Below are positions 12,529 through 14,034 of a stretch of DNA of 32,000 nucleotides, piece after piece. This stretch comes from Candidatus Babelota bacterium (lineage in GTDB: Bacteria; Babelota; Babeliae; Babelales; Vermiphilaceae). The stretch covers positions 150,001 through 182,000 of the forward strand of contig JBDHVY010000001.1 in NCBI GenBank assembly GCA_039809905.1, written 5' to 3'. The translations under genes and the position numbers were made by a program. The notes below the pieces were generated by a model, which was not told the origin of the DNA, searched no databases, and saw nothing but the letters and a program-made list of their open reading frames with translations. How positions within the stretch are numbered: position 1 is the first letter of the stretch; every line of letters begins with the position of its first letter.

Positions 12529-13041
12529 TCATTCGTAAGGCGATTTGCATTGCTCAACAAACAATCCACTTTTCTCTATGTTAGCTATCGTATTTTCACA
12601 AGCAATAGCACTGCCAACATACATATAAAAATCCCAACCAAAATGCACAAACATCTTTCTAGGGCATTTTAATTTACACCATAATTTCTCACGAAAAACT
12701 AACTTACAAAAATCCTGCATATCAGATTTATCTATCCAATTACCTTCTTTTGCTTCATTAAAAAGATAAATCATATGTAAGTTATTGTGATTATCTCTTA
12801 TTAGCTTTTTATTTTTTTCCAATGTATCAATTTGTAGCGACGTAATATTGTGACAAATCATAAAAAGTTCTATGGCTGTTATATATAAATTTTCAACTCG
12901 TTCGTATTCCTTAAAATCAAATTTTATACCTTCAAATATTTTTCCAATTTCTGAGTAAATACACCATTCATCTTTAAGATAAAAACCATTAGAGTCACGG
13001 AATTTTGGATCATACTTAGTTATTCGCCAATTAAATTTCAT
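12529..13041 (-). CDS. Cytoplasmic 170-aa protein, candidate immunity partner of the upstream HINT-toxin gene
   Basis: Has its own GAGG RBS and no signal peptide. Lies 54 nt downstream of, and on the same strand as, 13096..14034. The immunity role is inferred from position only. Confidence 0.55.
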   Translation of the reverse strand: MKFNWRITKYDPKFRDSNGFYLKDEWCIYSEIGKIFEGIKFDFKEYERVENLYITAIELFMICHNITSLQIDTLEKNKKLIRDNHNNLHMIYLFNEAKEGNWIDKSDMQDFCKLVFREKLWCKLKCPRKMFVHFGWDFYMYVGSAIACENTIANIEKSGLFVEQCKSPYE

Positions 13042-13095
13042 CTCAACCTCATATCAGCATCTAGAAACAGACTATCAAACTCATCTTTTATGTGC

Positions 13096-14034
13096 TTATT
13101 TTTTATAAATCTTCACAATTTTTTCAAATCTACGGCTAGCAGTATGTAATATATTGCCTCGACGATCAAATACTTTCCACATACCACCATTATGACCATC
13201 AATATCAGGACTAATATAATTTTTACCATTGAAGAAAACAGGTTGATTTCTGGTGTTTCCACATGGATGATCTTTCACTTCCCTATGACCAAAATCTTTT
13301 GCTATTTCTTTGGCTTCTTTTCTTGTTAATGACTTATATTCCTCTCTCGCTTCATCTCTCTTTCTCTTCTTTTCTTCTTCTGGATCCTCTGGTATCATTC
13401 CACCCCCATAAAACTGCGGTTCCATAACAATTTTATGTTTTTCTTTATTCTTCTTATGCCATTGATAACCAAGAAAAGTTCCTAATCCTGCAATACCACA
13501 ACTTAGCCCAGCTAATTCTACCGAACCAAGACCAAATGCAGCTGATATAGCAATAATAACTGGTGGAAAAAAGTTATGTGCACAAAGATTTGACCTTGTA
13601 ACAAAAAAATTATGATGAGTTGAAACACTCAGCAAATACACATCAATTGGTTCGTATATCATTTCAACAGATATTACATGACCATCTAAAGCATCCTCAT
13701 TTTTTAGCAATTTCGCAGCAATCCATTCATCATCTTTTTGTTTGTATAATTTTTGATCACATGCAACACGTAAATATTCTTCACCAAATTCGATTTTCAC
13801 ATAAGAATCGATAGATTTCTTAAAGATATGTACTATTTTGCTTTCAACAGGATTTTTATCAGCATCATAACAAATAACATAATTACCAACATGTAAATCT
13901 TCTATTTTCACATATCCATCAGGAACTTTAACCAATGTTCCTGCAGTAAATCCTTCTGCAAGGGATTTATTACTATTGAAAAACACAAATACAAACAACA
14001 CCACAATCTTTGTGAACAGGTAATTCATTTGCAC
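13096..14034 (-). CDS. Signal peptide - HINT (Hedgehog/intein-like) domain - hydrophobic Gly/Ala segment - C-terminal toxin-like module
   Basis: AGGAG RBS. HINT start GFTAGTLVKVPDGYVKIEDLHVGNYV. Intein block F/G-like VYLLSVSTHHNFFV...LCAHN (about aa 28-154, nt 13573-13953). Hydrophobic segment aa 155-192. KR/E linker. C-terminal about 80 aa with GKNYISPDIDGHNGGMWKVFDRRGN. Confidence 0.8.
   Translation of the reverse strand: MQMNYLFTKIVVLFVFVFFNSNKSLAEGFTAGTLVKVPDGYVKIEDLHVGNYVICYDADKNPVESKIVHIFKKSIDSYVKIEFGEEYLRVACDQKLYKQKDDEWIAAKLLKNEDALDGHVISVEMIYEPIDVYLLSVSTHHNFFVTRSNLCAHNFFPPVIIAISAAFGLGSVELAGLSCGIAGLGTFLGYQWHKKNKEKHKIVMEPQFYGGGMIPEDPEEEKKRKRDEAREEYKSLTRKEAKEIAKDFGHREVKDHPCGNTRNQPVFFNGKNYISPDIDGHNGGMWKVFDRRGNILHTASRRFEKIVKIYKK

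Follow-up and report, generated by a model that had tools for sequence, protein, structure and literature searches.

A small HINT-containing module of the polymorphic toxin–immunity type in a Babeliales bacterium, with a proposed mechanism of toxin release

Toxins that combine a signal peptide, a HINT domain and a toxin domain without RHS, filamentous or LXG parts were listed by Zhang, de Souza, Anantharaman, Iyer and Aravind (2012; PMC3482391) in their Table 1. In the same work, the signal peptide for the Sec/type II secretion system (T2SS) is given together with HINT as processing protease, Ntox21 (the toxin of the C-terminal region of CdiA, CdiA-CT, from Enterobacter cloacae) is reported with HINT and Imm41 or Imm-Barstar, and Ntox37 with Imm32. 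Here, we describe a related locus in a window of 32,000 nucleotides (the whole stretch of DNA analysed) from a Babeliales (Dependentiae) bacterium, which belongs to an order of protist parasites. The locus consists of two open reading frames (ORFs) on the minus strand, 13096..14034 (312 aa) for a HINT-containing pre-toxin and 12529..13041 (170 aa) for a putative immunity protein termed Imm-A. Both were present where an earlier note on this DNA had placed them. Its description of the pair as a stripped-down polymorphic-toxin cassette was supported by each comparative test run, and we assign a probability of roughly 0.7 to the locus being a polymorphic toxin–immunity module that works by the mechanism proposed below as a whole.

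The order of signal peptide, HINT domain, toxin and immunity gene is an architecture catalogued since 2012, and one family member already carries the NCBI name 'polymorphic toxin-type HINT domain-containing protein [Candidatus Babeliales bacterium]'. For these two reasons, the layout is less unusual than first thought: a delivery region is indeed absent and only a signal peptide is found, but the architecture as such is not unprecedented. Like the Sec/T2SS polymorphic toxins with PT-HINT (PF07591), the window protein has a signal peptide, a HINT domain just ahead of the toxin, a variable tip and a downstream immunity gene. In contrast to them, it lacks an RHS, filamentous or other central region, its HINT domain is predicted to lie at the mature N-terminus and always starts with Gly1, and its family has a 38-aa hydrophobic segment plus HKKNK between HINT and toxin. 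Furthermore, Dependentiae are not among the listed lineages, and Imm-A is neither Imm41 nor Imm-Barstar.

The toxin domain is homologous to that of the CdiA-CT/CdiI pair of E. cloacae ATCC 13047 (PDB 4NTQ; Beck et al. 2014 as cited in PMC9086364) and has kept the catalytic set Asp-x-Asp-x-His...Lys. A sister subtype in the Babeliales family is even followed by immunity genes of the CdiI_N type (PF18228); the window subtype has a different C-terminal tail and the unrelated immunity protein Imm-A. Whereas CdiA-CT is delivered by a very large filament of the type V secretion system, the window toxin has only a signal peptide. Small Sec-secreted toxins are also found in the S8-PTS/ABP systems of Gram-positive bacteria, in which Ntox21, ColE3 or Ntox33 tips are released by proteolysis and immunity is cytoplasmic (PMC9424270; PMC13460014). 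The window toxin resembles these in being small, predicted to be Sec-secreted and devoid of a large delivery apparatus. However, release in those systems depends on an S8 peptidase encoded separately, and the toxins carry a BetaH domain resembling receptor-binding domains, whereas release is predicted to be autocatalytic (by HINT) in the window protein, in which BetaH is absent. In the Imm-A loci examined, the neighbourhood of Imm-A contained no S8 peptidase.

No paper that links polymorphic toxins or HINT domains to Dependentiae or Babeliales turned up in the literature searches, and the Chromulinavorax genome paper never mentions toxins (PMC6561590). Judged by titles and abstracts, none of the publications mentioning PT-HINT deals with the window architecture. 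Likewise, no description was found of the conserved N-terminal part (the chassis) as a family, of an obligate Gly1 with HINT at the mature N-terminus, of a conserved hydrophobic segment behind HINT, of these systems in Dependentiae, or of Imm-A and the Ntox37-linked immunity family as catalogued families.

A conserved chassis with exchangeable toxin tips

All named relatives of the pre-toxin are from Candidatus Babeliales (phylum Dependentiae), and a protein identical to it was found on a 1.23-Mb contig. A first search yielded 47 proteins of about 300 aa, which have the N-terminal 200 residues in common and carry an Ntox21 or an Ntox37 tip; an exhaustive profile search returned 297 cluster representatives at E ≤ 1e-30. 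The tips of the 118 members scanned were assigned to Ntox21 (39), Ntox37 (39), the colicin-E3-like 'Cytotoxic' family (3) and Ntox33 (1), and about 35 had no Pfam match. Chassis boundaries were determined with a hidden Markov model (HMM) and tip subtypes by BLAST clustering, which resulted in at least nine tip clusters. In the alignment, the N-terminal chassis is conserved and the tip changes immediately after HKKNK. At the DNA level, the boundaries of the variable part were resolved in two syntenic loci, L001 and L005 (comparison loci are labelled L and database proteins P). Their flanks are 76–90% identical, and homology extends up to codon 200 of the toxin gene, is absent over the tip and the downstream gene, and resumes exactly at the next gene, maf. 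The exchanged unit therefore consists of the tip and the immunity gene.

In the Babeliales loci, the downstream gene belongs to one of three unrelated families, depending on the tip: Imm-A (about 170 aa) accompanies the Ntox21 subtype of the window, CdiI_N proteins (PF18228, 139–170 aa) other Ntox21 subtypes, and a family of 89–108 aa the Ntox37 tips. The covariation of tip and immunity family, for which 44 additional metagenome loci were taken into the table, gave an adjusted Rand index (ARI) of 0.72 (permutation p ≤ 2e-4, 29 non-identical pairs), and 12 of 13 Ntox21 tips shared the immunity family with their nearest neighbour. Behind Imm-A, intact non-cognate (orphan) immunity genes are located in L008 (CdiI_N type) and L009 (Ntox37 type). 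In the window, the stretch 12367..12489 matches the HMM of the Ntox37-type immunity family (E 2.6e-20) and is 90% identical to residues 64–104 of the intact orphan in L009 (tblastn). It has no start codon and is preceded by stop codons; from the sequence, it is read as a displaced, truncated relic of an Ntox37-type immunity gene.

A conserved N-terminus, alternative tips, a covarying immunity gene and orphan or displaced cassettes are the features by which polymorphic toxins are recognised, and their joint presence supports the assignment of the locus to this class. The view of the earlier note that the 170-aa gene is the cognate immunity gene gained from the same data (the covariation, the cassette swap and the orphans), which support, at the comparative level, that it behaves as the immunity gene of the window toxin.

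A different addressee of the toxin has to be considered. All ribosomes share the conserved rRNA decoding site at which the homologous toxin cuts. The toxin might thus be aimed at the ribosomes of the protist host, with the hydrophobic segment carrying it over a host membrane once it has been released within the host cell, and the immunity protein serving only for self-protection before export. In favour of such a host-directed effector, neither a domain for binding a bacterial receptor nor one for translocation is present in the toxin, genes for probable secreted hydrolases are abundant in the window, which also encodes an ankyrin protein, and Dependentiae are obligate intracellular and Sec-reliant organisms with many secreted effectors (44% of the coding sequences with signal peptides, and outer-membrane vesicles; PMC6561590). 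However, intact orphan immunity genes in L008 and L009 for tips that are missing at the respective locus and the fast turnover of cassettes are hallmarks of conflict among bacteria with a common toxin family, and if the toxin is exported by Sec co-translationally or unfolded, self-protection gives little reason to keep non-cognate immunity genes. We therefore consider a host-directed effector unlikely and keep to an interbacterial toxin, whose targets would be other Babeliales cells.

Several further observations were made at the toxin loci. The convergent GNAT gene downstream is common to the window and L008; after Imm-A, an intact CdiI_N orphan is located in L008 (6533..6952) and the relic in the window, a difference that records distinct cassette histories at one locus. 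In L007 (1368..7337), which belongs to a 1.05-Mb Babeliales genome, three toxin–immunity pairs (two Ntox37, one Ntox21) are found within 6 kb. The tips without a Pfam match (P0187, P0220, P0260, P0271, P0288, P0296, P0301 and relatives) form several clusters, each followed by its own small ORF of unknown family; these about 35 tips and the small ORFs are candidates for new toxin and immunity families. A pair of NTP_transf_2 and NTase_sub_bind genes, which resembles toxin–antitoxin systems of the MNT/HEPN type, is located directly upstream of the HINT toxin gene in L007 (5194..5888) and L009 (4124..4854). Mobile elements adjoin the toxin loci in L001 (3187..5202), L003 (5186..5839 and 10196..11591) and L005 (1..3357) and comprise insertion sequence (IS) transposases, an IS1595 element, a group II intron reverse transcriptase, and a phage integrase with primase.

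The HINT domain and the hydrophobic segment behind it

Residue numbers refer to the 312-aa product with GTG start and are offset by +2 relative to the 310-aa ATG form. The Sec-type signal peptide that the earlier note had seen was also recognised here by inspection of the sequence as a predicted leader, with a predicted signal-peptidase site SLA|EGF that leaves one residue ahead of the HINT domain. Across the family, the second residue before the Gly is A, S or G, and HINT starts at aa 20–29 in 92 of 113 members. As residue −2 fits a signal-peptidase site and HINT starts early, the mature protein is predicted to begin with Glu-Gly-Phe. With HINT at the mature N-terminus, there would therefore be nothing N-terminal to release.

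Four HINT-type Pfam families match aa 28–154, each slightly under its cut-off. For PT-HINT (PF07591), the window protein scores 24.9 bits (cut-off 27.7), and 108 of the 118 family members match at E ≤ 1e-3, the best of them at 3.7e-18. The HINT domain proposed by the earlier note is thus found by profiles, though always below threshold in the window protein, and it was borne out by further comparisons. Residues 27–154 align end to end with the bacterial intein-like (BIL) domain 2LWY (phmmer, E 1.8e-5). The AlphaFold2 (AF2) model of the domain has a pLDDT of about 90, and in a Foldseek search with this model the BIL domains 6Y75 and 2LWY ranked at the top (best E 2.4e-11, ~1e-11; target TM-score 0.78–0.84), followed by mini-inteins and Hedgehog (1AT0). 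As modelled, aa 28–154 have the HINT fold.

For the N–S acyl shift, inteins need Cys or Ser at position 1 as well as the Thr and His of block B, whereas cleavage at the C-terminal end requires a His-Asn pair as the last two residues together with the His of block F; splicing needs a nucleophile at +1. In mini-inteins such as Ssp DnaB, the terminal His-Asn and the block-F His drive the cyclisation of the Asn. In the window protein, Gly28 stands in the alignment at intein position 1, where 2LWY has its C1A residue, and Gln94 replaces the block-B His, as expected from a first residue Gly and a missing TxxH in the earlier note. The block F/G signature described there was seen as well: block F reads HHNFFV and includes His141, and the domain ends with His153-Asn154. 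Position 1 is Gly in all 159 aligned members, including nine with about 220 residues ahead of HINT; two unrelated giant toxins from the same family search retain Cys-Phe at the HINT start. The block-B position is occupied by Gln in 146 members and by His in 28. At the other end, His-Asn is present in 178 of 178 members, and His153-Asn154 are the only invariant residues of the 118-sequence alignment; 168 of 181 members retain the block-F His. At +1, the family has F, I, A, V or L, with Thr in one member with internal HINT; Cys or Ser does not occur there. An intein was rejected on account of the missing nucleophile at position 1 and the absence of Cys or Ser at +1.

Because the N-terminal nucleophile and the block-B set are lost and the terminal His-Asn and the block-F His are kept, the residue pattern supports that only C-terminal cleavage is possible, at the predicted scissile bond Asn154|Phe155. 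The competence for cleavage at one end only, which the earlier note had deduced from a single protein, thus appears to be a property of the family. In BIL domains, which often lack the +1 nucleophile, cleavage takes the place of splicing. Those of Clostridium thermocellum (2LWY) and Tetrahymena (BIL2, 6Y75) gave the best sequence and structure matches of the HINT domain, but they keep Cys1 and can process the N-terminal junction, whereas the Babeliales family has Gly1 and no N-terminal flank. One might also ask whether the domain cleaves at all: with its N-terminal nucleophile and block-B His lost and its scores under all Pfam HINT cut-offs, it could be a folded carrier, an adhesion module or a chaperone for the hydrophobic segment, and the protein could act uncleaved. 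However, the invariance of His153-Asn154 and the retention of the block-F His are hard to explain without catalysis, and we regard an inactive HINT domain as highly improbable.

Behind the scissile bond, the hydrophobic segment, the basic cluster and the charged linker were found as the earlier note had described them. The segment is 37–38 aa long in all members, consists of about 40% Gly, Ala and Ser, and is directly followed by a net-positive cluster in every case. Its Kyte–Doolittle maximum (over 19 residues) is 1.4–2.0 and its simple Hessa sum +1.8 to +4.8 kcal/mol. With 1.83 bits per column it is conserved to the same degree as the HINT domain (1.79), with fixed Pro, Phe, Gly and Glu (consensus FxPxxxxGxxxxFGxGxxExxGxxxGxxxxGxxxGY.W-HKKNK). 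The segment alone had no match in Pfam at E ≤ 10, where glycine zippers and bacteriocins had been considered. Between HINT and toxin, the AF2 confidence is below 50; a helix is modelled at 218–232 in the charged linker, with low confidence ahead of it. HINT and a hydrophobic segment follow each other in this order also in the 613-aa Babeliales toxin of L023, where a long helical linker comes next. In unrelated giant toxins with an internal HINT domain, the match to the chassis model is confined to its HINT part.

The most likely role of the segment is in membrane insertion or entry of the toxin once HINT cleavage exposes it as a new N-terminus. In T6SS (type VI secretion system) effectors of the prePAAR/Tse6 class, hydrophobic helices on a toxin that is of the nuclease type or acts in the cytoplasm are thought to insert in the inner membrane of the target and to aid the crossing. 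The comparison is an analogy only: there is no sequence relationship, T6SS or chaperone gene, and the window segment stands behind a self-cleaving (as predicted) HINT domain. A more far-reaching version, which we consider speculative and rather unlikely, is a self-contained delivery device. HINT would keep a fusion-peptide-like segment soluble during Sec export and cut itself off, and the hydrophobic N-terminus and the basic cluster would insert in the target membrane and pull the nuclease across. If true, no secretion machine, receptor-binding domain or chaperone would be needed, which would make this a minimal entry mechanism of intracellular parasites against co-infecting relatives or the host.

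The same segment can be read in the opposite way, as a stop-transfer anchor that leaves HINT in the periplasm and the toxin bound to Imm-A inside the producer, in an addiction, suicide or sensing system. The hydropathy maximum reaches classical transmembrane values, the net-positive cluster behind the segment matches the positive-inside rule, and the immunity protein has no signal peptide. However, the high share of Gly, Ala and Ser, the conserved Glu and the positive Hessa free energy are atypical of such an anchor, and the position-by-position conservation far exceeds what an anchor needs. Moreover, tip polymorphism and orphan immunity genes are typical of exported toxins, no model of anti-phage defence or toxin–antitoxin systems was matched, and a periplasmic HINT domain that merely cuts itself off has no obvious purpose. 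A membrane-tethered toxin is therefore considered improbable. Readings as a defence system or a phage gene were rejected as well: a PADLOC search for anti-phage defence had no match, and the only match in PHROGs was a weak one to the HINT region.

The Ntox21-type tip and its neighbour Imm-A

The C-terminal module, which the earlier note had taken for a toxin domain, was identified as such by Pfam and the PDB. Ntox21 (PF15526) matches aa 244–289 with 40.1 bits (cut-off 25), and aa 232–299 match chain A of 4NTQ, the CdiA-CT of E. cloacae, with PDIDxH..WK aligned (phmmer against PDB, E 3.5e-10). CdiA-CT of E. cloacae cuts 16S rRNA between A1493 and G1494, and its catalytic residues are Asp203, Asp205, His207 and Lys214 (PMC9086364). 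All four have equivalents in the alignment, namely D277, D279, H281 and K287. The AF2 model of the toxin contains one helix and six strands, which is the composition published for CdiA-CT of E. cloacae (PMC9086364). By homology, the window toxin would cleave 16S rRNA at the decoding centre.

No Pfam or NCBIfam family matched the 170-aa protein, so that, in contrast to the toxin, it could not be tied to a database family as the earlier note had envisaged; even at E ≤ 1 there was no match to Imm41, Imm-Barstar or CdiI_N (PF18228). Matches to ASNSD1-SEP (E 0.014) and SH3b_P2 (E 0.18) were dismissed as chance, and the sequence search in PDB was without result. Imm-A is modelled by AF2 with a pLDDT of 94.6 and has no Foldseek neighbour in PDB. 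Double ferredoxin-like FdL-Imm families have been reported to neutralise Ntox21 in Bacillales (PMC9424270). The order of secondary structures in the Imm-A model fits the published description of FdL-Imm1–4, with which it was compared by description only (PMC9424270).

In the Babeliales loci, Imm-A is always located downstream of the Ntox21 subtype of the window. Beyond these, it was found in 115 database clusters and 283 genome loci of Bacillota, Pseudomonadota, Cyanobacteriota, Planctomycetota, Verrucomicrobiota and other phyla. Of 80 genome loci retrieved, 20 have it directly behind an ORF that ends in a canonical Ntox21 (70–106 bits), and it is an orphan in the others; the upstream chassis outside Babeliales include RHS-repeat, eCIS-core and PT-TG proteins, among others. 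The gene contexts support Imm-A as an Ntox21 immunity family across unrelated chassis and phyla.

Two observations concern the wider Imm-A family. In many Bacillota proteins, Imm-A is fused to DUF7683 (PF24731; P0114, P0127 and P0148 [Paenibacillus, Roseobacter]), and in one protein (P0161) weakly to Imm44. The fusion to Imm-A suggests that DUF7683 is itself an immunity-associated domain. A homologue is also present in L035 (5534..6052) on a contig binned as a metagenome-assembled genome of a Methanobacteriota archaeon, for which a binning error or a transfer is possible.

Proposed mechanism, locus layout and significance

According to the proposed mechanism, the pre-toxin would be exported via Sec, and signal peptidase would leave Glu-Gly-Phe at the mature N-terminus, so that HINT stands at the very start with nothing ahead of it to release. 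The N-terminal catalytic set of the domain is lost (Gly for Cys1, Gln for the block-B His), and the C-terminal set of His141, His153 and Asn154 would suffice for a single cut by cyclisation of Asn154. The freed fragment would have the Gly-rich hydrophobic segment as its new N-terminus, followed by the basic cluster, the linker and the Ntox21 RNase. HINT would mask the segment until cleavage, and the segment would then serve in membrane insertion or entry. The RNase would act on 16S rRNA, as expected from its homology to CdiA-CT, and cytoplasmic Imm-A would bind and neutralise the toxin in the producer and its siblings. Cassettes of tip and immunity gene would be swapped by recombination just after HKKNK.

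Several points weigh against this proposal. The window protein alone is under the Pfam cut-off for every HINT family, and AF2 gives no confident structure for aa 160–220. Hydrophobic segment and basic cluster could equally form a stop-transfer anchor that holds the toxin in the cytoplasm of the producer. The Pfam match to Ntox21 is limited to profile positions 2–46 of 71, and the tail GNILHTASRRFEKIVKIYKK is without the canonical RxG[ST] and RxxD, which are the C-terminal Ntox21 motifs in Zhang et al. (2012; PMC3482391); canonical Ntox21 tips read ..TRMGTYD..NRIGD. Because of the partial profile match and this tail, the tip is classified on its sequence as a divergent Ntox21 subtype. The case for cleavage, toxicity and neutralisation is comparative throughout. 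No outer-membrane export route and no receptor-binding or entry domain was identifiable. The Dependentiae, which live as parasites inside cells, have a diderm envelope, rely on Sec and release outer-membrane vesicles (PMC6561590), and because they are obligate intracellular parasites, interbacterial targets are not obvious.

The features of the locus are given in Table 1. The true start of the pre-toxin is almost certainly the ATG at 14028, because the GTG at 14034 falls within the Shine–Dalgarno sequence (ataGGAGTGcaaATG) and the 310-aa ATG form is identical to the database record P0001; an exact database look-up of the 312-aa GTG-start product gave no match. The ORF of the earlier note thus stands, with its start and length corrected. 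What it had listed for the 170-aa gene, a gap of 54 nt, an own ribosome-binding site (GAGG) and no signal peptide, was all seen.

Table 1. Features of the toxin–immunity locus and its downstream flank (window coordinates; aa in 312-aa numbering)
Feature	Position	Strand	Basis or remark
Shine–Dalgarno sequence GGAG	14034..14037	-	5 nt upstream of ATG 14028; overlaps the GTG of the ORF finder
Pre-toxin gene, 310 aa (312 from GTG 14034)	13096..14028	-	ORF, identity to P0001
Predicted Sec-type signal peptide, aa 3–26 MNYLFTKIVVLFVFVFFNSNKSLA	13957..14028	-	sequence inspection
HINT / bacterial-intein-like putative autoprotease domain, aa 28–154	13573..13953	-	Pfam, phmmer, AF2, Foldseek
Gly-rich hydrophobic segment, aa 155–192 (FFPPVIIAISAAFGLGSVELAGLSCGIAGLGTFLGYQW)	13459..13572	-	family alignment, hydropathy
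Basic cluster HKKNKEKHK, aa 193–201	13432..13458	-	alignment; recombination switch point directly after
Charged linker, aa 202–231 (..GGGMIPEDPEEEKKRKRDEAREE), part of the Ntox21-type cassette	13342..13431	-	alignment, AF2
Ntox21-type toxin domain, aa 232–312, tail variant NILHTASRRFEKIVKIYKK	13099..13341	-	PF15526, 4NTQ_A
54-nt spacer with GAGG ribosome-binding site (13047..13050) for the immunity gene	13042..13095	-	sequence
Putative immunity gene Imm-A, 170 aa, predicted cytoplasmic	12529..13041	-	comparative evidence
Putative Ntox37-type immunity gene relic, C-terminal 41 residues	12367..12489	-	HMM, tblastn
86-aa ORF with GGAG ribosome-binding site, last ORF ahead of the terminator	12082..12342	-	ORF list, sequence
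Bidirectional terminator, 15-bp stem-loop with T-runs, between cassette and convergent GNAT gene	12051..12083	.	sequence

The product of the 86-aa ORF between relic and terminator has a hydrophobic stretch at its N-terminus and a charged tail, and the identical contigs L011 and L012 have this ORF annotated as a gene. The ORF has no similarity to the immunity families of the Babeliales loci, and its membership of the toxin module is uncertain. The wider region 4026..18957 of the window encodes probable secreted enzymes or effectors, among them a PLA2_B lysophospholipase, a clostripain (C11) and a double-HIT protein with leader, as well as HAD, GNAT and PLD proteins, two unknown proteins of 400–459 aa with hydrophobic leaders, and the ankyrin protein. 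Around 20 kb, beside a tRNA Asp-Asn-Val cluster (19561..19922), gene orientation turns from mostly minus to mostly plus, and the GC skew changes its sign near 23 kb; the region of about 19500..23500 may be a replication origin or terminus.

With about 310 aa for the pre-toxin and about 170 aa for the immunity protein, the locus would be a very small natural system for HINT-driven toxin release. It is predicted to have retained the Asn-cyclisation half of intein chemistry alone, a property that could be useful in self-cleaving tags with a single cut. The conserved hydrophobic segment right after the scissile bond is the likeliest place for a new mechanism. Imm-A represents a widespread putative Ntox21 immunity family (283 loci in many phyla) for which Pfam and NCBIfam have no entry and Foldseek gave no neighbour among solved structures, and the pre-toxin family offers about 35 uncharacterised toxin tips on one chassis. 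For the biology of the Babeliales, the comparison indicates that obligate intracellular parasites with genomes of 1–1.4 Mb retain a large, fast-recombining arsenal of predicted nuclease toxins and immunity proteins, which implies either real conflict among co-infecting strains or the use of the toxins against the host.

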